A stretch of 64,000 nt of DNA from Vampirovibrionales bacterium (GTDB taxonomy: Bacteria > Cyanobacteriota > Vampirovibrionia > Vampirovibrionales > JAJTHC01). Both the position numbers and the translations under genes were made by a program. The notes under the pieces were generated by a model, which saw only the letters and a program-made list of their open reading frames with translations, was not told the origin of the DNA and did no database searches. Below are positions 24,597 through 37,207 of the stretch, one piece after another; within the stretch, counting starts at the first letter, position 1, and each line of letters begins with the position of its first letter. The stretch lies in assembly GCA_046341215.1 (NCBI GenBank), contig JBKDRU010000005.1:79233-143232 (forward strand), written 5' to 3'.

Positions 24597-25517
24597 TTGA
24601 AACTATTTCAGGTATTACTCCCTTTTCGACAACAAAAACCTGAAATATACCATATCCCTCCCCCTAATTCTAAAGTGCGTAAAGTTCTAGAACATTGCCC
24701 TAGAGGTCACTTAAGTGGTGAAGGATTAATGCACTATTGGGTAGTACTTTCAGTCGACCGTTTTGTTAAAGCCATCCCCAATACTGCAAGAGGTGCTAGA
24801 GAAGCAAAGCTTAATAATGAAATTTATGACCGTTTTGTAAAAGCAGGGCTTCAAAAGCACATTCCTGAACTATATTCCTATTCTTCTTTTCCAGCAGATC
24901 CAAAAAGAAAATTACCTCGCTCATTGAAACATAATGTTATTCTGCTTGAATTTGAAAGTATTGACGGGAAATCATTAAGCCAGCTGAGACGAAAAGGCGT
25001 TTATTCACATGAAGATATTAACACCCTATTAAACGAGGAAATTGCCCCCATGTTGTTTGAAGTCTATAAAAAAACGGGCTATATTTTCTTTGATAGGAAT
25101 TCGGGGAACTTCATGGAATCGACTAATAAAAAGGGGGGGAAAGTCATTACGATGGTTGATTTTACCCCTTGTTTTGTCAAAGACTTAAGCAAGATGACAC
25201 TGAGGCAGATTTTCAGTAAAGAAGTCATGGGTGCAAAGCTTTTAAAAGAATTAACAACCCACGAAAAAGCCCTATTAAAACAGCATGAGAATGTGACGTG
25301 GGACGCCTTGCAAAAAGCAACAGAGCCCATTGAAGGGTTGGACGACCAAACGCTCAAAGCTTGGGTCGATTCAAAAATAGAATCTCGTATTGCGGAACAT
25401 CTTGCACATGAACATCACCGAAATCAATATGATTGGCGAGCCGTATTAAAAAAAACGTCCATACGATTCGGCTTTAATCGGTGGATGGTATCACTCTTGC
25501 ATGCTCTAAAAAAATAA
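24597..25517 (+). CDS. Atypical protein-kinase-like fold ORFan (hypothetical)
   Basis: A catalytic-loop-like FFDRNSGNF (D-x4-N), a DFG-like VDFTP and a VAIK-like FVKAI are present. The start is uncertain: TTG at 24597, or ATG at 24729 preceded by a GAAGGA ribosome-binding site. The gene looks AT-rich by eye. Confidence 0.3.
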   Translation: MKLFQVLLPFRQQKPEIYHIPPPNSKVRKVLEHCPRGHLSGEGLMHYWVVLSVDRFVKAIPNTARGAREAKLNNEIYDRFVKAGLQKHIPELYSYSSFPADPKRKLPRSLKHNVILLEFESIDGKSLSQLRRKGVYSHEDINTLLNEEIAPMLFEVYKKTGYIFFDRNSGNFMESTNKKGGKVITMVDFTPCFVKDLSKMTLRQIFSKEVMGAKLLKELTTHEKALLKQHENVTWDALQKATEPIEGLDDQTLKAWVDSKIESRIAEHLAHEHHRNQYDWRAVLKKTSIRFGFNRWMVSLLHALKK

Positions 25518-25546: not shown

Positions 25547-27415
25547 CTACTTTGTGGTAGCGTTAGATGAAGTTTCTTCAGGCTTTGGCGGAGCATCCTT
25601 CGCTTTTTTGAAACGATATTCGGTTTCGGTGACCACTTGATTCAACCATACAGGGAAAAAGCCAATAACCGCAGCCACTAAAACGTAACCAATCGAATCG
25701 ATAGGGGATCTCATATTACGTGCCGATTCAGATAAAATACGACGAACCTCTAAGGATTCAAGCGTTGGGAGCTTCAACGTCTTCTTGACCCAATCTAAAG
25801 CAGGTAAGGGTACCTTCGTGCCTAAAAAGTTAAACGACGCTTTTAAGTGCTTTGCCCCATCGCTTTGAAGGCGTTTAATTGTGGCATCCAAGGCATCGAC
25901 TTCTTTCATCGCACTGGCAGAATACGTATACATGGCTTTAAAGTGCTTTAAAACGCCTTGTCCATGTGAAGAATTTAAGACATCCAACACGTTTTGACCT
26001 GCTCTTAAGGCAGCCACGCTATCTTCTAATTGAGTAAAATGCTCATTTTTCAGGGTATTAAAGACTTGCGAATAGCTTAGCGCTTTACCGTCTTTGGATT
26101 TAGGATGGGTGGCCATGACTTTTTGGGTGCAGACATCGATAAAATGTTGATAGTTCAGGGCTTTGTCTGCCATGAGGTTAAAGGCAGTGATGTCACCTTT
26201 TTGCATAGCCAAATCTAAATGCCCTTTGAAAGTGGCGTAATCAGGGGTTTGTGTCGCTGCTTTTAAATAGGCTTTTTCTTTAGGAAGTTCCCCAAGCAAG
26301 GCTTCTTCTTGAATCTTTTTGTGAAGACCTTGAAGATCATCGGCGACGATTTCTTTTAAGGCCTTAAGCGTGATGTGTTCTACCGCAAAGTCTTTGTCTA
26401 AACCCTTGAGTTCAAATAAGCGACGAATCAAGGTATCGGGATCCGTATTAAGGGTGGCACGACGCATCGTCTTCGTTCCTTGTTCAAGGGAAAGCTCGTT
26501 AATCGCATCGTAGAAATGGGTGCTTAAATGTGTTTTTGCGGTGCCTACGTCTTGCGTATGAGCAATCATTTTACGCCCCCCACTATGAAGCGCATCGATC
26601 ATTTGAAGCATAAAGCGAGCCTTTGCTTTTTCATCCATCGACGCTTGGGGATTGTTCAATGTTTTCAAAAATCGCGTCGTTTCCGTTTGCCAAAGCGGGT
26701 AAGCTTGAAGGTAATCTTCCATAGGTTTGGCTAAATTACTATTCGCTTTATGCATGGCTGCAAGTTTAGCCAACGTTTCTGGTGCATTGGGGGTAAGGTT
26801 ATAAATTTCTTTAATTTGCTGATAAGTAATCGAATGAACTGGCTTACGAGGGTTTAAGCTTCCGTGCATGAGCATTAGATTGGTATGCTTAGGGCTTTTA
26901 CCTAAGCTGAATAAGGTGCCGTCTTTTTGTTTTTTAGCCAGCATCGCATGCTTAACAGGCTCTAACGCAAACAAGAACAGTGAAATAGACAACACATCCC
27001 GAATAAGCACATCTCGAATTGCACGGTAATCACGCCCTTCAGCTATACCGTCATTATCTTCATCGATTTCAGGCGCTCTGAGGTATTCAGAATGCATACG
27101 AGCAGGCATCATCGAACCAAAGAACATTAAAATCATGAAGCTCAAAGGCAACCTGGGAATAATTACCCCAAAGAGTTCAGGTGTTTTTTCAAATTTGGCA
27201 AATTCCACACTGTCCGTGAGTAGGGACGTCATTTTTGCAGTAGTCATTTGCACCGCTTTCGATGCTGGGTTGGATGTATTTCGAGCCTGAGCATTTAGGC
27301 GATCCGAAAAGTTCTTGCCTTTAATAGGAATACTTTTCACGTCATGGTAATAAAAGTGATTCAGGGCATCCACAAAGCCATTATTGTTGTAAGGGGATTT
27401 ATTAGACATCATCAT
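25547..27415 (-). CDS. Large hypothetical membrane-associated protein (622 aa), second gene of a two-gene operon
   Basis: The start is MMMSNKSPYNNNG, which is Ser/Asn-rich. Hydrophobic segments lie near residues 85-105 and 575-595. Its ATG overlaps the stop of the upstream gene (ATGA). Confidence 0.6.
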   Translation of the reverse strand: MMMSNKSPYNNNGFVDALNHFYYHDVKSIPIKGKNFSDRLNAQARNTSNPASKAVQMTTAKMTSLLTDSVEFAKFEKTPELFGVIIPRLPLSFMILMFFGSMMPARMHSEYLRAPEIDEDNDGIAEGRDYRAIRDVLIRDVLSISLFLFALEPVKHAMLAKKQKDGTLFSLGKSPKHTNLMLMHGSLNPRKPVHSITYQQIKEIYNLTPNAPETLAKLAAMHKANSNLAKPMEDYLQAYPLWQTETTRFLKTLNNPQASMDEKAKARFMLQMIDALHSGGRKMIAHTQDVGTAKTHLSTHFYDAINELSLEQGTKTMRRATLNTDPDTLIRRLFELKGLDKDFAVEHITLKALKEIVADDLQGLHKKIQEEALLGELPKEKAYLKAATQTPDYATFKGHLDLAMQKGDITAFNLMADKALNYQHFIDVCTQKVMATHPKSKDGKALSYSQVFNTLKNEHFTQLEDSVAALRAGQNVLDVLNSSHGQGVLKHFKAMYTYSASAMKEVDALDATIKRLQSDGAKHLKASFNFLGTKVPLPALDWVKKTLKLPTLESLEVRRILSESARNMRSPIDSIGYVLVAAVIGFFPVWLNQVVTETEYRFKKAKDAPPKPEETSSNATTK

Positions 27416-29085
27416 GACACCTTATCCTCCCCCACTGGTTTTGAAGCAGATGCTTTCAAGTGCTGGCGAATGGCGGCTTGCTTACTCAAAGGCAAGCCTT
27501 CCGTGGGTACAGGGGCTTGCGTATTTTTTTCATGGGGTTTGGCTTTGTTGAGCGTGACTAAGCGGTTGGCGGGGTATTCTCGTCCTCTTTGAATCGCATG
27601 AGACAAGTACCACATCCAGCCCAGCATCCACATCAAAGAACCTAGTGTAATGAAGGCTTTGGTGGCTTTTGCGGTATTGAAAGATTGAGCAAGGGCCTCC
27701 CTGAAATCACCCTTACCTGCTTTAGCAAAGAAATTACGTAAGCCTGCCACCATTAAATCACGTCCCTGGTCCATACCACGTAAATGATATAAGAAAGCCT
27801 TTTGAGTAGTTCCCTTACCCTGCATGGTATTCAGATGGATCATTTGCTTTTTCATACGTGTATTTGGGGAATGAATGGCGTTCGCCTTCAAAGCCGTGTG
27901 TTCTGCAATGTTATACAACGCTTGCATTTTAGCGGTTAACAGGGTATGTTCTTCACGACGTGTCTTATTAAAGAAAATAGAACCTGAACCATGTTCAACA
28001 TCAAACGCTAACAACTTGCCTTGAACATCAGCTATTTCTTTTATGACTTGATCCAAGGTCACATCTTTTAAGCTAAGTAGTGAATTGTTGTTGAGTTTGG
28101 TATGACTATTTAAAGACGCTTTTAATCCAAAAAGCTCGTCGTCTTTTAAGCCTTTTTTCAGGCTGTTTAAATGCCCATTACTCAGATGATAATAGGGATT
28201 GATCAAAGTATTGCCATGAAATTCGATCGCTACTTTTTCTTGACGCTTTAGATCAGGAATGCCTTCAAAAACACGTTCCACATAGCCTTTGCCGAAGGCT
28301 TCTAAGTTTTTTCGATCTTGGGGGTTAGTCGGCCGAATGGGTGTTTCAGTCAAAAACTGTTGCACATTTTGATGTTCTTGCGTCAGTTCGCTTTCAGACA
28401 TCTGCAAGGAACGACGCCCTGTCCAGCTTAAAAACTTGTTACGACTGAGTAGAGGCACTAGACCAAACACCAAGGCAGGCACCAGCAAGGAACCTGGGGC
28501 CGCTTGTACTTCTCTCATTATTTCTTCACCCAAGTTCGCCCAATTGGCATTTTGGGATTTTTTGCAGCGAATATAAATCCACTTATTTAAGCCTTTGCGT
28601 TGTTGGGCTTCAGGGTCTTTTTCAGGGTCATAAGGCACGGCCCCTCGTTGTAAAGAACGTGAAATACGAGGAAACCCCATACCCACAAAGTCTAAAATCG
28701 TAAAATCCCAAAAGAATTGTGAATCAATTTTAGATGCCAAATTTGCCGCTAGTACTGGATTCAATGTGGACGCATACCCTACTGCTGCTAAAGTCAGCAG
28801 TTCAGGCGAAATTTCAAATTTGGCTTCTTCGTGCTTCTTTTTTCGTCGCTTGAAGGGGTTGAGTCGCTGTGCTAAAGAAGTTTTTTCGGTGGCTTTCCCT
28901 TCCATTTCAGTGGCTGGAGTGGGTAAGGAAGGCTGGGTTTCGAAGGCATCGTGAGTAGGGAATTCTTCTATCATCATATTAGTTAAAGAAGGCGTGGATG
29001 CCTTTCGCCTTTGCGGCTCGTCTTGTTCAGCTTTGAGCTTTGCAAGTGTATGATAATAAAGAGACGACTGTTTAATGGACATCAT
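27412..29085 (-). CDS. Large hypothetical membrane-associated protein (~557 aa), first gene of the operon
   Basis: The frame opens at a TTG at 29097 and the likely start is ATGATG at 29085. There are two hydrophobic segments and no recognisable domain. Confidence 0.55.
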   Translation of the reverse strand: MMSIKQSSLYYHTLAKLKAEQDEPQRRKASTPSLTNMMIEEFPTHDAFETQPSLPTPATEMEGKATEKTSLAQRLNPFKRRKKKHEEAKFEISPELLTLAAVGYASTLNPVLAANLASKIDSQFFWDFTILDFVGMGFPRISRSLQRGAVPYDPEKDPEAQQRKGLNKWIYIRCKKSQNANWANLGEEIMREVQAAPGSLLVPALVFGLVPLLSRNKFLSWTGRRSLQMSESELTQEHQNVQQFLTETPIRPTNPQDRKNLEAFGKGYVERVFEGIPDLKRQEKVAIEFHGNTLINPYYHLSNGHLNSLKKGLKDDELFGLKASLNSHTKLNNNSLLSLKDVTLDQVIKEIADVQGKLLAFDVEHGSGSIFFNKTRREEHTLLTAKMQALYNIAEHTALKANAIHSPNTRMKKQMIHLNTMQGKGTTQKAFLYHLRGMDQGRDLMVAGLRNFFAKAGKGDFREALAQSFNTAKATKAFITLGSLMWMLGWMWYLSHAIQRGREYPANRLVTLNKAKPHEKNTQAPVPTEGLPLSKQAAIRQHLKASASKPVGEDKVS

Positions 29086-29361
29086 ACGAATGTGCAAAAC
29101 CTATACTTTAAAATCCCAATGAACGAAACGATGCTTGTAGCTCCTAAGTGTATGGAAGTAACCATTCACAAACGTTACAAGATTCAAAGCCACATCAGCA
29201 TAAAACCCTTTTTTAATAAGGATTGTGCCAAACGTCGTTACATTCGAAAACGAGAGAAGACGATAACACCACGATGAGAATACGAGAAAAAACGTTCGGT
29301 GAATATATTCAAAATATTAAGAATTTAGTTTACCTCATAATGGGCGTTTTGTCAAAGGTTG

Positions 29362-31276: not shown

Positions 31277-32245
31277 ATGAACTTTCCTTCTCTTGCAGTG
31301 CATCCCTTAATTTTCCCCAGTCAACATAAGACGTCTTTGACTCAAGCGTCTCCCGCAAAACGTGTTTCACCGTCACCCTTGTCGCAACGTCTGGGGGTCA
31401 CATTTGTAAATGAAGCGGGGGGAATTTTAACCAAAGCCGATGCTTATAAACGATTAATAGACTTTTTTTCTCACAATCTCAATGCTGTTTTAGAAACTTA
31501 TCTAAGTGGTAGAACCCCACCCACAGAAAAAGAACTAAAAACTTGGTTGGGTTTGCTTGAAGCAGATTTTGAAAACAAAGCCCGTCTTTTGGCAGCACTT
31601 CCCGATGAAATTAAGGTTCGGATTTCATTAGGAAGCGATCCTATATTGACCTTATATGAGCGAGAAGTCGATTTCAAGACTTTAAGAGATTGTATCGATA
31701 CTGCTCTCAAGGCAGGTAATGGCTCTTCCTACACAAATGCACTGAAATATAATATGCCATCTGACACAGATCCTAATATGATGGTTCCCATTATTTCGAT
31801 AATAGATGATAAAGGGAATCTGCCTTTTATAACTCATCATCTTAGGTTCCATGCGGTAACTAAGAACATTCCTTATAATCCCAAATTTAATCGCCTCATG
31901 CTCCAATTTACCGAGCTCCTGGGACTATCCAGAAGAACTTCCCCTAAAACTAAACAGCCTCAGTATTGGTGGACTTTTCACCAAGTAATGGCGTCTCCTA
32001 TTCATAAACGCATCCCCAAAGAGAAGATAGCTGAAACACCTTTAATGCAAGAATGGAGTTCACGTAAAAACCGAACCACACTAAGTATAGAACTCAATAA
32101 ATTATCCAGAACAGAAACTCGTTCCATCTCTACATGGATTTGGGACATATTGCGTGAAAGGATGCCAGACTACTCTTTGTCAGGAATAGCGACCCTGCCA
32201 CAAAGAGAGCTTCCCAAAAAGCTCCCTCTCCCAGCTCCTAAATAA
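31277..32245 (+). CDS. Hypothetical ORFan (322 aa)
   Basis: The ATG was verified. The N-terminus is Ser/Pro/Thr-rich with no hydrophobic signal. No motif was recognised. Confidence 0.45.
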   Translation: MNFPSLAVHPLIFPSQHKTSLTQASPAKRVSPSPLSQRLGVTFVNEAGGILTKADAYKRLIDFFSHNLNAVLETYLSGRTPPTEKELKTWLGLLEADFENKARLLAALPDEIKVRISLGSDPILTLYEREVDFKTLRDCIDTALKAGNGSSYTNALKYNMPSDTDPNMMVPIISIIDDKGNLPFITHHLRFHAVTKNIPYNPKFNRLMLQFTELLGLSRRTSPKTKQPQYWWTFHQVMASPIHKRIPKEKIAETPLMQEWSSRKNRTTLSIELNKLSRTETRSISTWIWDILRERMPDYSLSGIATLPQRELPKKLPLPAPK

Positions 32246-32295
32246 ACGCCGTAAAAATATTTGCTAAAACAATTGAGTCAAACAAGCTAACCCCC

Positions 32296-32625
32296 CTAGA
32301 TCGGAGCCTTCAACATAGCCCCCTTATAAGGCAAAAAAGGGCTTTGGTAACCAATGTTTTCAGGAGGCAGATCCACCTGCGGAATTCGGTTTTGCTTGTC
32401 AAACGGCTCTTCAGGTCTCATCACCCACGGCTGCACCCGTTGAGCCCACGCTTGTGGCGACAGCGGGAACACCGTCGGGTAAAGGACTGGTGGCTCGGCT
32501 TTTTTTGCCTCGTCGTTTACAGGGTCTTCATCCCGCACGGTTAAATCAGGCGGAGACGGCAAGCCTGACATATCTTGAGCTTGAGCGGGTTCCGTGGCTT
32601 TTGTTTTAGGAAGTGAATCAGGCAT
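32296..32625 (-). CDS. Pro-rich small hypothetical protein (109 aa)
   Basis: It lies 21 bp downstream of the 878-aa gene on the same strand. It has about 20% Pro and is acidic. Confidence 0.4.
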   Translation of the reverse strand: MPDSLPKTKATEPAQAQDMSGLPSPPDLTVRDEDPVNDEAKKAEPPVLYPTVFPLSPQAWAQRVQPWVMRPEEPFDKQNRIPQVDLPPENIGYQSPFLPYKGAMLKAPI

Positions 32626-32646
32626 GAGACGATTTACACACTTTCA

Positions 32647-35283
32647 TTAAACGGCTTTTTTGGAAGGCGTTGGCTTTTGAGTCAAGGCATACATCAACGC
32701 GGCTTCTTGAGGCGTCAGTTGCTTGGGTACGTTTGTCGCTTGTGAAGCCGTCGGGTTTTTCGCCTGTTGAGCCAAGGCGTATAACAAGGCGGCTTCCTTG
32801 GGGTCAATGTCTCGAACCTTTTTTGTGCCAGCCAAACGATAGGCTTCTTCGATTTGGGCAGGCGTCAAGGTGATTTTTTCTTTTGTGGACGCTTCAGGAT
32901 ATTTGGCAATTAAGGCAATATCTTCTTTTTTAATCGAACTAAACTCGCGATCTTTAATCGCTTTAAGGGTTTCTCTAGCTTTGTCACGCTCTTCGTATTC
33001 GACCAAATACGTGGGTTTGCCCACAGTCTTGTCTTGAATCGTTTCCACCCCTTTACGTAGTTTGCCTGCTAAGAGGAGTTGACCTCCCAGTCCAATGATA
33101 ACACCCGCCCCTGTCAACCAGTGAAAGCCTGCCACGACAAAGGGGAGTTTAAAGCTCGTCAAATAATGCCCCCCCATCAGCTTACCCAAACGATTGCCTC
33201 GGTTCAAGAACACCATCAACTGATGACCACCGATCATCGGCAAGGCAATGCCTAAACAGGCTCTTAAACCTGCTTTAATTTGTTCACCCAAGACAAAGGG
33301 CTTTTCAGCAGGCTTTTGGACTTCAGTGGTTTTAGCGTCTTTACTTTGAGGCTTGGCTTGGACGTTGTCTGGGACGTTGGCTTGAAGAGGTGGCGTAGAC
33401 TTTGCTTGGGGCGCTTTTGTTTTAGACGGCTTACCTGCGGCCATAAATGCCGCCCAGCCCGTACTAAAGGCGGTCACGGCTCCTAAGAAGAACATTAGAT
33501 ATCTTGGTTGAGCTAAACTCTTCAGCATACCAAGCAGCGGATTATGACCCCCCTTGCTCAAGTCAGACATCGCTATGGCTTTCTTTTTCAAGACTTCTTC
33601 AGGCTGTTCATGCAAGGCAAACTTTGCCATATCAATGACGCCACGCCACACGGAAGCCACACCACGTCCTAAACCACTCACGCCCCACGCTTCAGAAAGT
33701 TCTTTCTGATTATGAATGAATTGTTCATGTTCAGAGATGTTTTGCATTAAACGTTGAATCGAACGTGGCAAGACATCGTGGAGTTTTTTAAAGGCTGTTA
33801 AACTTTTTTGAGCATGGTTACTAAACTCCCCATTGAGTTTAAAGAAATCATTCACCGTCATTTTCTTCGAAGGATCTAACGCTGCAATGTGTTTTTCAAC
33901 CGCTTCTTTGCCCAACAAAGCTTCCCAATGGGCTTGATTACGGGTGATTTCTTGCAGAGCCGTGCTTCTTAATTCTACGAGCTTCGCTTCAGGTGTGAAA
34001 ATTTTAGAAAAATAACGACTGAATGGCAGGACTAAATTTTTATCCCCCACCTTTTTTAAACGAAAAATAGACGATTGTATATCTTTAACTTGAAGCAACT
34101 GGGGGTTATGTTCCAACGCCTTAACTTGTGCAGGCGTCATAGATTTGGCGGTATCGATATTCATATGTTCGGGCGACCAGAACCAACGCTGTCCTCCCTT
34201 GTAAAGGTCTGAATGAATTTGGTGTAAATAGGCGTGCTTCACGCTCGGCGGATTGACTCCGTTTACATACGCAATGACGGCTTTTTGAAGTTCTTTGACG
34301 GCGTCTGAATCATTAGGCGCACCTTCTAAAATAACCTTCATTTGTTGAGGACACTGTTGAATAAAATCATCAAACTGAGTTAAATATTCAGGATTCTTAT
34401 CTCTTCCCAAAACACTCAGGAGTTTGGATTTGGAGAATTTTGACATCGCTTCAGGCGAACCAGACGCCTTAGCGTTCGCTAAGGCTTCTTCAAATACGGC
34501 TTTAAAGTGATGATAGAGGTTTTGGTCTAACGCCTTATTTTCCTTGCCTTGGGTTAAAAAGCCTTTGGCATCTGCTTCAAGGAAGGGGTTCATCAACGTC
34601 GTAGTCACATGCCGATGCTGTTCAGGCGTCATGATTTGTTCAAAACGTTCGTAATAATCGTGATGGGTAGTCGCTTCTTTCAGCGTTTGATGCAAGTTGT
34701 TATAATGGGCAATATAGCGTTCTATCAAAGAATCGGGAGCAAGAGTTACCCCTGTTTTAAGCTTATTGGCCGTCGCATTGAAGGCATGTTCATGATTGCC
34801 AAGCCAATAACGGTTGTATTCATCGGAAGGCAGGTCGCCTAGGTACGCACGCATCCATGTAGGCAAGTTTTTAAAACTACCTTCTTTAGGCGTCCAGCCA
34901 TCTATCCATCTGGCGAAACCTCCCAAAAGGGTATTATGCGCGGTTTTTTTATTAAGGGGATTAATGGTTCCTAAGTTGGGATCCAAGCCCGCCAAGCGAT
35001 TAGCGATATTCGTAAACGCCAATAGAGAAACGAGTCCTAAGCCAATAGCAGCGCCTTTTTCGGGGTAAGACAAGCGTTCAGACGATTCTGGATCCATGAA
35101 CTGCATGGTCAGTGCAAGATCAAAGGCCTTTTTAGCCAACGAATCGCCTACTTCTCCCGCGTTTTCAAGTTGTTGTTGAACTTGATCTTGAGCGTTGTTT
35201 TGCACGTTTTTCATGGCTTGTAAGTGATTTGAATTTGTCGGAAAGTTCGGACTGCTTGATGAACTGGTATTAATCGATGCCAT
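32647..35283 (-). CDS. Large hypothetical protein (878 aa) with internal hydrophobic segments and C-terminal tandem repeats
   Basis: The N-terminus is Ser/Asn/Thr-rich (MASINTSSSSSPNFPTNSNH). There are three hydrophobic stretches, including a ~60-aa Gly-rich double-helix-like segment. The C-terminus carries two tandem copies of the motif (P/T)xEAAL(L/M)YAL(A/T)Q. Confidence 0.6.
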   Translation of the reverse strand: MASINTSSSSSPNFPTNSNHLQAMKNVQNNAQDQVQQQLENAGEVGDSLAKKAFDLALTMQFMDPESSERLSYPEKGAAIGLGLVSLLAFTNIANRLAGLDPNLGTINPLNKKTAHNTLLGGFARWIDGWTPKEGSFKNLPTWMRAYLGDLPSDEYNRYWLGNHEHAFNATANKLKTGVTLAPDSLIERYIAHYNNLHQTLKEATTHHDYYERFEQIMTPEQHRHVTTTLMNPFLEADAKGFLTQGKENKALDQNLYHHFKAVFEEALANAKASGSPEAMSKFSKSKLLSVLGRDKNPEYLTQFDDFIQQCPQQMKVILEGAPNDSDAVKELQKAVIAYVNGVNPPSVKHAYLHQIHSDLYKGGQRWFWSPEHMNIDTAKSMTPAQVKALEHNPQLLQVKDIQSSIFRLKKVGDKNLVLPFSRYFSKIFTPEAKLVELRSTALQEITRNQAHWEALLGKEAVEKHIAALDPSKKMTVNDFFKLNGEFSNHAQKSLTAFKKLHDVLPRSIQRLMQNISEHEQFIHNQKELSEAWGVSGLGRGVASVWRGVIDMAKFALHEQPEEVLKKKAIAMSDLSKGGHNPLLGMLKSLAQPRYLMFFLGAVTAFSTGWAAFMAAGKPSKTKAPQAKSTPPLQANVPDNVQAKPQSKDAKTTEVQKPAEKPFVLGEQIKAGLRACLGIALPMIGGHQLMVFLNRGNRLGKLMGGHYLTSFKLPFVVAGFHWLTGAGVIIGLGGQLLLAGKLRKGVETIQDKTVGKPTYLVEYEERDKARETLKAIKDREFSSIKKEDIALIAKYPEASTKEKITLTPAQIEEAYRLAGTKKVRDIDPKEAALLYALAQQAKNPTASQATNVPKQLTPQEAALMYALTQKPTPSKKAV

Positions 35284-35483
35284 AAGAAAAACCTTTATGC
35301 GTTAGCATGCCCCCTTCGTGAAAGTGACGAAGGGATGTCTATATACAAGCATTAACACAAATTCTACTCTACTTGTTGCTAGTGAAAAGGTGAGGGGGGC
35401 TCAAAAGATGTCAGATCCCCTTATCCGTTTTGACGAATTTAATCGATTTAAGCCTGTTAGATGTAAAGATACAGGTCATTTCC

Positions 35484-35622
35484 GACACACGAAACCCCTG
35501 TTTTTGACACACGAAACCCCTGTTTTTGACACACGAAACCCTCTTTTCTGACACACGAAACCCTCTTTTCTGACACACGAAACCCTCTTTTCTGACACAC
35601 AAAACTCTCTTTTTTGACACAC
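35484..35622. repeat. Tandem array of 22-bp direct repeats (6 full units plus a partial 7th)
   Basis: The units are 2x GACACACGAAACCCCTGTTTTT, 3x GACACACGAAACCCTCTTTTCT, 1x GACACACAAAACTCTCTTTTTT, then GACACAC. Each unit ends in a T5-6 tract. The array sits in the 616-bp divergent intergenic region 35284..35899. Confidence 0.9.
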
Positions 35623-35962
35623 ACTCACGACGGGAAAGAGAGGGAAAGGGCTCCCAAAGGAGCCAAAAGGGTCGGTTTTTAAGGAGCTACTCTTCTTCAT
35701 TATGACCGCAATTTAAAGCCTTGCCTAGTGACGAAACACCATGTTTTTCTTCGAAGTAAGTGAATTCATAAAATGAGATTGTTTTTTTAATATAACAATT
35801 TGTTAACATTTAGCAATTCGTAGCTTTATAAATTGTTTATTAAAGCATAAGACACAAATAAAGTTCTTTTGTCTAAATACCCCCAAAACTAGCTTTTCGT
35901 TGCTCTATTTATTCTTCTTTATTAAATTTCCCTGTACACCTCACATGAAAGGATCACTTAAG

Positions 35963-37207
35963 ATGATTTCTCTTAATCCAAATAACCCTTGGTTGCCTAA
36001 TAACCAACAACCCCCTTACGATTTAGCCACCACCTCTCCCTATCCATCTGCGTACCCTGCTTTAGGGACTCCCGCTCAAAATACGTATGCTGTAGGAGCA
36101 ACCTATGGGCAAAATACTTCTGGCTGGGATACCTATCAAGCTCCGTATCAAGCTCCGTATCAAGCTCCAGCTGCAAATACATTGCTCGCCACGAATACCC
36201 AGACTTACACGAATGCCCCTACTACGATTACTGAGAAAACGTATGCCCCTGATACGAGAATCTATGCCCCTGAAATCACCTACAATTATATTACGAAGAC
36301 TTTTGAATATAAGCCTACCATCACACACGAAGCAGCTCCAGCTCCAGTGTATCCACCTCCAGTGCCCCCCCCAGCTCCAGTGTATCCAGATCCGCCTAAG
36401 ATTGAGCTTCCTAAAATTCAATATCCACCTCAAGAGTCTAAGAAAAAAGAAGGGACAAACTGGTTGCCTTGGCTTATAGGAGGAGGAGGAATCCTCGCCG
36501 CCCTCTTCTTGCCTAAACTTTTCGGCAAGAAAGATAAAGTTGAAGCCAAAGCGGAAGCCAAAGCTGAAGCAACGGTTACGGCTACGCCTGAAGCTGTTGA
36601 AGAAAAATCTGAAACACCCGCTAAAAAAGACACGGTTTACACCAAGCTTGAAATCAACGCTCACGGAGATCCTATTTTTGTGACACGCAATAGTCTAGGT
36701 GAAGTTACTAGACAAGAAGAAGTCAAAAGTGGCGTAGTCTTTGAAGACGGCAACTCTTCTTTAAGCGTTCAAATGGACAGCCAAGATCCTAAGAACGTTT
36801 TTATGAAAAGCTTTAGCTATACAGTCGATGGTAAAACCGTTCAAGGTGATTCTAAAGGTAACGTTACCGTTGGCGGAAAATCCGTTGCGGTGGGTTCTAG
36901 TGCAGAACTGCCAAATGGCGGTACGGTCACGGTTTCTAAAGAAGACGGCACTTCTATCGGTGGCTTTAAAAATCAGTCTAAGATCGAAATTAAATCCCCG
37001 AACGAATCGGGTAATGGTTATGAAAACATTACTTTACATGCTCGTAAAAACAAACGTGGTTTAATCATGTACGAGTTTAATGCTAGTAAAAAATCTGAAG
37101 CCTCGAATACTGCTGAACGTGTCAAAAATGGATTTGTAAAAAAAGCCTTTGATAAAGAATATAAAAATCAAGGGGTGGATGATACCCCTGTCACCGATAA
37201 AAAATAG
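35963..37207 (+). CDS. Repetitive Pro-rich, single-pass membrane/surface protein (hypothetical)
   Basis: The ORF opens at 35900, and the likely start is MISLNPN at 35963. It has YQAPYQAPYQAP and PAPVYP repeats, one transmembrane segment (WLPWLIGGGGILAALFLP), an (EAKA)n run and a ~230-aa C-terminal domain. Confidence 0.5.
   Translation: MISLNPNNPWLPNNQQPPYDLATTSPYPSAYPALGTPAQNTYAVGATYGQNTSGWDTYQAPYQAPYQAPAANTLLATNTQTYTNAPTTITEKTYAPDTRIYAPEITYNYITKTFEYKPTITHEAAPAPVYPPPVPPPAPVYPDPPKIELPKIQYPPQESKKKEGTNWLPWLIGGGGILAALFLPKLFGKKDKVEAKAEAKAEATVTATPEAVEEKSETPAKKDTVYTKLEINAHGDPIFVTRNSLGEVTRQEEVKSGVVFEDGNSSLSVQMDSQDPKNVFMKSFSYTVDGKTVQGDSKGNVTVGGKSVAVGSSAELPNGGTVTVSKEDGTSIGGFKNQSKIEIKSPNESGNGYENITLHARKNKRGLIMYEFNASKKSEASNTAERVKNGFVKKAFDKEYKNQGVDDTPVTDKK

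Follow-up and report, generated by a model that had tools for sequence, protein, structure and literature searches.

A conserved gene pair of the Vampirovibrionales predicted to encode a large membrane protein with repeated EAAL tail motifs and a proline-rich partner

The Vampirovibrionales, the sister group of the oxygenic cyanobacteria, are predatory and do not photosynthesise; their cell biology is little known. We examined a 64,000-nucleotide (nt) stretch of one such genome (the window: contig JBKDRU010000005.1 of assembly GCA_046341215.1, positions 79,233 to 143,232), in which two adjacent genes encode a protein of 878 amino acids (aa) and, downstream of it, a Pro-rich protein of 109 aa. 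A preliminary description, made from the letters of the window, had taken these proteins for partners unlike any known family, had likened the larger one to inclusion- or vacuole-membrane (Inc) proteins of intracellular bacteria and had counted both among a cluster of effector-like ORFans. What it had reported of the sequence was confirmed, and its interpretation was supported as regards the pairing and the novelty of the proteins; the Inc likeness, the cluster and the ORFan status were not supported. The features of the two genes are given below in window coordinates. Modelled limits refer to an AlphaFold2 (AF2) model, with its local confidence expressed as the predicted local distance difference test (pLDDT).

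32647..35283, minus strand: gene of the 878-aa protein (open reading frame; stop codon at 32647..32649; full-length homologues of 94-34% identity).
32296..32625, minus strand: gene of the 109-aa Pro-rich partner (open reading frame), 21 nt downstream of the 878-aa gene.
35104..35283, minus strand: N-terminus, aa 1-60, rich in Ser, Asn, Thr and Gln and predicted to be disordered (pLDDT <50 over aa 1-53).
34984..35049, minus strand: hydrophobic helix 1 (GLGLVSLLAF...LAGL), aa 79-100, marginal as a transmembrane segment; modelled helix 73-98.
33502..34983, minus strand: large all-alpha domain, aa 101-594, with a 57-residue helix (aa 477-533) and the conserved block LPRSxxRxxQNIxEHxQFIxNQxxLSxAWGVxGLGRxVAS.
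33433..33501, minus strand: hydrophobic helix 2 (YLMFFLGAVTAFSTGWAAFMAAG), aa 595-617, the most convincing transmembrane segment; modelled 593-616.
33298..33432, minus strand: low-complexity linker rich in Lys, Pro, Gln and Ala, aa 618-662, of variable length (pLDDT <50; modelled disorder 622-663).
33058..33297, minus strand: Gly-rich hydrophobic helix pair 3-4 around the loop FLNRGNxLGxxxGGHYLTS, aa 663-742, the segment earlier described as double-lobed.
32650..33057, minus strand: helical C-terminal domain and motif-bearing tail, aa 743-878 (family identity 61-74% over aa 741-840).
32830..32862, minus strand: degenerate motif copy PAQIEEAYRLA, aa 808-818 (within LTPAQIEEAYRLAG, aa 806-819), with P-x6-Y-x-L-A in register with copy 1.
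32773..32796, minus strand: motif copy 1, EAALLYAL, aa 830-837, preceded by IDPK.
32683..32706, minus strand: motif copy 2, EAALMYAL, aa 860-867, preceded by LTPQ.

The AF2 model of the 878-aa protein, built from a 16-sequence alignment after a 9-sequence alignment had given too poor a result (pLDDT 50.7), was all-alpha (pLDDT 69.3, predicted template modelling score 0.61). The N-terminus was confirmed as rich in Ser, Asn and Thr: 15 of the first 24 residues are Ser, Thr, Asn or Pro and none is charged, and homologues retain this composition as well as an initial M-x-S-(I/V)-N. Hydropathy delimited four hydrophobic segments (aa 75-100, 595-617, 673-694 and 711-742), of which the last two make up the Gly-rich double-lobed segment reported before; Gly accounts for 20.8% of aa 669-745 vs 6.3% of the whole protein. 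The model places helices 3 and 4 at aa 663-694 and 725-754 with a low-confidence loop between them. All four segments are only moderately hydrophobic (Kyte-Doolittle means 1.0-1.6), and helix 2 is the sole clear-cut transmembrane segment: by a crude application of the Hessa scale of membrane-insertion free energy it sums to 1.2, with a family identity of 77% and a Lys-rich flank after it. Helix 1 sums to 4.1 on the same scale, with Kyte-Doolittle means of 1.2-1.9 over the family and a mean family identity of 72%.

Conservation along the protein peaks in helix 1, at aa 141-160 and 501-560, in helix 2, in helices 3-4 with their loop and at aa 781-840. Family-wide identity is 66-77% in the hydrophobic helices and in the loop that joins helices 3 and 4, against 40-55% in the helical domain, which was modelled over aa 112-590 with pLDDT 60-92. 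Near-invariant residues in the helix 3-4 region are N694, R695, G696, N697, H706, Y707, T709, S710, H721 and W722. The linker at aa 618-662 is the least conserved block (22-39% identity) and ranges from ~10 to ~90 aa among homologues. Beyond helix 4, helices were modelled at aa 758-777, 786-794, 808-817, 828-842 and 858-868, with a small domain at 758-842, and the extreme C-terminus is Lys-rich. Four to five Lys or Arg residues stand right after helix 4 vs one before it, and such residues are also enriched after helix 2, suggesting a cytoplasmic location for the linker and, probably, for the C-terminal domain. With an acidic flank preceding helix 1, the large helical domain may lie on either side of the membrane.

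The two tandem copies of EAAL(L/M)YAL at the C-terminus, as originally reported, start 30 residues apart. When the 878-aa protein was shuffled 2000 times, an 8-mer recurring at 7 or more of 8 positions was seen in only 11 cases. The motif is present in all homologues that possess the C-terminal domain, with the family consensus (T/S/D)P-x-E-A-A-L-(L/M/F)-(Y/L)-(A/T)-L, and E830, A831, A832, L833 and L837 are each at least 90% conserved; the degenerate copy is likewise kept in every homologue with this domain. Copy number varies: one copy is found in P0009, P0011, P0012 and P0014, two in the window group and P0010, and three in P0007, with poorly conserved, low-pLDDT linkers between copies. Judged from the alignment, this conservation together with variation in copy number is the predicted behaviour of a short helical interaction motif on a flexible tail. 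Paralogues sharing the motif, which the preliminary description had proposed to look for, did not appear. A six-frame translation of the window held no other occurrence of EAAL(L/M)YAL or EAAxxYAL, and an exhaustive search returned no protein sharing the C-terminal domain alone other than fragments of the same family.

The small protein was confirmed as Pro-rich (21 of 109 residues, 19.3%), with four PxxP strings; neither a hydrophobic segment nor a signal peptide was found in it. Its conserved core reads W..P..PFD(K/R)(L/M)NR.P.VDLP..NI.YQSP.LP(Y/H)(K/H)G, and partners of the window clade carry an extra N-terminal DLSGLPSPPDL element. The pairing that had been proposed was strongly borne out by comparison: of the 12 lineages whose downstream sequence could be read, 10 have a partner homologue immediately 3' of the large gene (loci L003/4/5, L006, L007, L008, L009, L010, L012, L013, L014, L015, L017 and L018, of which L013 is a complete 2.04-Mb Vampirovibrio sp. 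genome). This adjacency persists even when identity between the large proteins falls to 34-37%, and the gaps range over 1-220 nt. The genes flanking the pair are housekeeping genes that vary by lineage (tRNA synthetases, UvrA, ribosomal proteins, FtsY, PBP1, DapB), and such varying flanks around a persistent pair indicate a free-standing two-gene operon with no larger island. On this comparative evidence, the 878- and 109-aa genes are assigned to a single predicted operon and a putative functional pair.

Loci that depart from this arrangement, or whose surroundings differ, were also recorded. No partner homologue was found at any of L001, L002 and L011. At L001 (12737..17629), a convergent histidine-kinase gene lies directly 3' of the large gene and is followed by a serine recombinase (Resolvase/Recombinase) and a DUF2924 gene, which suggests rearrangement by an integrative element; in L002, too, the position right after the large gene is taken by a convergent histidine-kinase gene. 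P0018, the most divergent member, is without the entire motif-bearing C-terminal domain and without a downstream partner gene. Upstream of the P0005 homologue in L003 (242..6487) are SocA/Panacea, a nucleotidyltransferase pair, a zeta toxin (toxin-antitoxin-like) and UvrA, a variable context unrelated to that of the window.

Relatives were found in a single order. For the large protein, a word-indexed search returned 8 relatives (94-51% identity), and an exhaustive hidden Markov model search of 1.84 billion cluster representatives returned 11, of which 7 represent full-length lineages with identities as low as 21-37%. When one genome per GTDB species was scanned, 7 loci emerged, six of them titled Vampirovibrionales and the seventh being L009. 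All named homologues of the large protein are metagenome-assembled genomes (MAGs) of Vampirovibrionales or Vampirovibrio, many from freshwater metagenomes, and a profile of the small protein retrieved 16 clusters from the same lineage only. L009 (JBEISK010000008.1) is titled a 'Gammaproteobacteria bacterium' MAG, yet it is collinear with the window at 90-95% nt identity and carries Vampirovibrionales-specific genes; this bin is probably mislabelled or contaminated. Each contig or lineage yielded one homologue, with no sign of paralogue expansion. By these searches, both families are order-restricted as sampled, and the large and small gene appear to belong to a conserved Vampirovibrionales chromosomal set, for which the term ORFan is too strong. 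The order-wide, apparently single-copy and housekeeping-flanked distribution resembles that of a lineage-specific core gene.

Both genes are genuine and under purifying selection. The ratio of nonsynonymous to synonymous substitution rates (dN/dS) of the large gene was 0.15 against a relative of 75% identity and 0.12 against one of 51% identity; that of the small gene was 0.26-0.45. That these reading frames are not genes, or that the repeat is a product of chance or assembly, has a negligible chance of being right: the absence of family matches is all that speaks for it, and against it stand full-length homologues in independent assemblies from many samples, dN/dS well below 1 and the conservation of start, motif and pairing.

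The claim that neither protein resembles a known family withstood profile and fold searches. No Pfam or NCBIfam match was obtained for either protein or for any of 16 family members, and PHROGs and PADLOC gave no meaningful match for either family. A profile search of PDB sequences returned designed helical proteins only; Foldseek against the PDB gave best E-values of 0.075 and 0.14 with TM-scores ≤0.25 and no fold match, and nothing similar to the partner was seen in Pfam or the PDB. Confident homology to any housekeeping membrane protein already characterised, named beforehand as what would overturn the description, was looked for and not found. The family is unclassifiable against known sequence families and folds, and a new mechanism is not thereby demonstrated.

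The reading that we favour, tentatively and at somewhat short of an even chance, is that the 878-aa protein is a resident scaffold or adaptor of the cytoplasmic membrane with helical docking motifs and a disordered partner. The protein would be retained in the cytoplasmic membrane by helix 2 together with the Gly-rich helices 3 and 4, where the conserved polar His, Asn, Arg and Gln residues would make these helices a packed functional core as opposed to simple anchors. The membrane part would carry the all-helical domain of ~490 aa, and the flexible C-terminal tail would display one to three Pro-capped helices of the form (T/S/D)P-x-EAAL-x-x-x-L that may act as multivalent docking or oligomerisation motifs. 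The co-transcribed, disordered Pro-rich protein would bind the large protein, probably at its C-terminal module; the loss of both C-terminal domain and partner in P0018 counts towards this link. Together, the two proteins may form a membrane-bound scaffold or adaptor. Membrane residence, topology, partner binding and the scaffold role are each features that we infer from sequence.

Several observations weigh against this scaffold reading. The proposed function has support from neither experiment nor homology. The helices are marginally hydrophobic, helix 1 being borderline and helix 3 exceeding the crude cut-off, and AF2 confidence is low for helices 3-4 and the tail. The acidic flank before helix 1 is a poor fit to an N-in signal anchor, making the topology uncertain. 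As to the partner, its link to the C-terminal module rests on the single case of P0018, and the P0008 lineage (the three loci L001, L002 and L011) keeps the C-terminal domain without an adjacent partner. Between the window and L009, the large gene has a dN/dS of 0.47, evolving faster than its neighbours: RsmH, DedA, superoxide dismutase (SOD) and ferredoxin genes range from 0.02 to 0.10, and the genes of two nearby helical proteins of 561 and 622 aa from 0.18 to 0.22.

An unlikely alternative, which generalises the effector idea of the preliminary description, is a secreted, membrane-inserting effector or translocator. It would leave the cell through a type IV secretion system (T4SS) or the type III apparatus of the flagellum, and its weakly hydrophobic, Gly-rich helices would enter a prey membrane while the tail and the Pro-rich protein engage prey proteins. 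An uncharged N-terminus rich in Ser, Thr, Asn and Pro resembles type III secretion signals, and its composition is retained among homologues here; the Lys-rich extreme C-terminus, the flagellar genes in the window, the raised dN/dS among close relatives and the hypervariability of both flanking genes are also in keeping with export. Marginal hydrophobicity is typical of secreted membrane proteins that evade targeting by the signal recognition particle, and the helices have this property; however, a resident protein of the window used as control, DedA, is equally marginal, so hydrophobicity is uninformative as a discriminator between secreted and resident proteins. The family is confined to an order of which the sole described species is predatory and bears a flagellum, a conjugative T4SS and type IV pili (PMC4451040), but across about 12 genomic contexts neither linkage to flagellar export or T4SS genes nor a chaperone-like neighbour was seen. 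ClyA-family alpha-pore-forming toxins, which are pore-forming cytolysins, occur among the weak Foldseek hits, yet at noise level (probability ≤0.1, TM-score ≤0.23). The single-copy-like orthologue in housekeeping surroundings, the strong long-range purifying selection and the conserved polar residues within the hydrophobic helices, as in a resident functional core, also argue against an effector, and the bilobed architecture of Inc proteins is absent.

Links of the locus to flagellar genes were considered and rejected. In the window, flagellar genes lie 8-9 kb from the 878/109 pair, and in L016 one rod-like gene follows the partner; the other contexts have none. For the 561- and 622-aa genes, the 622-aa gene is ~135 nt from flgG in L009, but a purS or an amine oxidase gene follows in two other genomes.

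A resident oligomeric channel or transporter-like protein, in which helices 2-4 form a conduit or sensor and the helical domain, tail and partner are regulatory, is a sub-variant of the resident-membrane-protein reading, and we consider it improbable. The hydrophobic helices and the NRGN...GGHYLTS loop are the most conserved parts, with invariant His, Asn and Arg, and Gly-rich helices such as those found here are common in tightly packed channel helices. The weak Foldseek hits were mostly polytopic transporters and channels, but every structural hit was insignificant (E ≥0.07, TM-score ≤0.25). A chain has just 3-4 helices, and neither a transporter or channel family match nor a substrate-related gene context was found.

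A predation device, in which the large protein is exported by the T4SS or the flagellar type III apparatus, enters the prey membrane by its weakly hydrophobic Gly-rich helices, and uses its tandem tail helices and co-delivered partner to hijack prey cytoskeletal or signalling proteins, appears very improbable. If true, it would represent a new class of membrane-inserting effector in the cyanobacterial sister lineage.

The pair lies in ordinary chromosome: the window encodes Mfd, PNPase, ClpX, ClpP, trigger factor, DapB, RsmH, DedA, SOD and ferredoxin, and also FlgA, FlgG and a flagellin-like protein. GC content is unremarkable around the operon, and an Rfam scan gave no match in the operon region. 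A divergent intergenic region of 616 bp upstream of the 878-aa gene contains a tandem array, and a promoter-like site lies nearer the gene:

35361..35388, minus strand: promoter-like site TTTTCA-16-TAGAAT, ~80-105 nt 5' of the start codon, from a consensus scan only and not evidence of function.
35479..35622, no strand assigned: 22-bp tandem array of TTTCTGACACACGAAACCCTCT, 6.5 copies (Tandem Repeats Finder, 93% matches), 196-339 nt 5' of the 878-aa start codon.

The array varies in copy number, with 7.6 copies in the close relative L009. No further copy of it was found in the window, and among the homologues only that of L009 has it upstream.

The effector-like cluster of the preliminary description was not upheld, and its members appear as separate operons placed side by side. 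The 878-, 622- and 561-aa proteins were mutually unrelated by BLASTP and by hhalign profile comparison, and the 561- and 622-aa proteins share only the string AKFE..PEL, just before the first hydrophobic segment. The genes of these two (25547..29097, minus strand) overlap by 4 nt and encode helical membrane proteins that form their own conserved, Vampirovibrionales-restricted pair with no family match in Pfam or NCBIfam. The two pairs are not co-conserved: the 561/622 pair is found elsewhere without the 878/109 pair, and the reverse was also seen.

Other genes nearby differ from those of L009 to varying degrees. Between the 622-aa gene and flgG, a 306-aa reading frame (24597..25517, plus strand), without family match, has no counterpart in the otherwise collinear L009 and marks an indel. 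The convergent 322-aa gene (31277..32245, plus strand) is hypervariable: its product is 32% identical to that of L009 (dS 1.19), and over 31401..32269 there is no blastn match to L009, while flanking genes are 90-99% identical (dS 0.03-0.25). This divergence looks like allele replacement by recombination. Only the 322-aa gene keeps its position in nearer relatives, and a homologue of 25% identity occupies the same place in L003. The divergent gene on the other side (35900..37207, plus strand) encodes a Pro/Thr/Lys-rich protein of 435 aa with one hydrophobic helix, QAPY three times and KAEA three times; it contains 12-bp DNA repeats at 36134 and 36542. One part of this gene differs from L009 much more strongly than the surroundings do (76.7% nt identity, dS 0.89).

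A two-gene module that is conserved throughout the order, is not found elsewhere and has no relatives in sequence or fold is a candidate for a lineage-defining function, which could lie in predation, attachment or the envelope. Hypothetical membrane proteins confined to one lineage are common, however, and no specific mechanism is indicated here. The present value of the analysis lies in a well-delimited family definition and a corrected interpretation, and the tail motif and the linear core of the partner provide concrete, testable handles.

Among known systems, the chlamydial Inc proteins share with the 878-aa protein a polar, uncharged N-terminus, a close pair of hydrophobic helices in a helical protein and the lack of an enzymatic domain. 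The two lobes of Inc proteins are linked by a very short hairpin. Here, by contrast, helices 673-694 and 711-742 are split by a conserved polar loop of 17-26 aa (NRGNRLGKLMGGHYLTS(FK)), P0006 and P0010 carry ~27 further aa between the two helices, a further two hydrophobic helices are hundreds of residues distant, and the protein, with its 878 aa, far exceeds Inc proteins in size. Pfam and NCBIfam searches with the 16 family members gave no hit to IncA or any other Inc family. The lifestyle differs as well: just one species of the order has been described, an epibiotic predator that forms neither inclusion nor vacuole, and the host lineage is not intravacuolar (PMC4451040). With the Inc bilobed architecture (two ~20-aa helices and a short hairpin within 40-60 aa) absent and the lifestyle mismatched, membership was rejected.

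ClyA-family toxins (AhlB, XaxA/B, MakA/E, Hbl, Cry6Aa) and type III translocators are likewise all-helical, with long helices, a weakly hydrophobic hairpin and, often, two- or three-component operons; the ClyA-family fold itself was rejected on the noise-level Foldseek scores given above. WH2 repeats, as in VopL/VopF and TARP, also combine tandem short amphipathic helices near the C-terminus with Pro-rich sequence, and the last EAAL copy is followed by ...SKKAV. This candidate was rejected too: Pfam PF02205 gave no match at E ≤1, no LKK(T/V)-like ending follows copy 1 and homologues do not conserve one, and the spacing differs. Resemblances of the EAAL motif to LD motifs and to a LuxR helix did not survive inspection or Pfam. 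Eukaryote-type N-myristoylation (MGxxxS/T) of the N-terminus was dismissed as not conserved, with some homologues starting MG and the window protein MA.

A membrane protein encoded beside a Pro-rich protein recalls ExbB/ExbD-TonB. The partner differs in having neither a transmembrane helix nor a TonB C-terminal domain, and the large protein has no ExbB, MotA or TolQ match. In principle of design, the tail has a parallel in the paxillin LD-motif scaffolds, whose motifs follow the register L-D-x-L-L-x-x-L and bind four-helix bundles. The register here is E-x-x-L-L-x-x-L, and the analogy is one of principle with no sequence or fold relationship. In both, Leu-rich helices of 10-12 residues with an acidic start are carried on flexible spacers in a tail, here in 1-3 copies; like LD-motif systems, the 878-aa protein also contains four-helix-bundle-like elements, for which the structural hits to bundles are generic.

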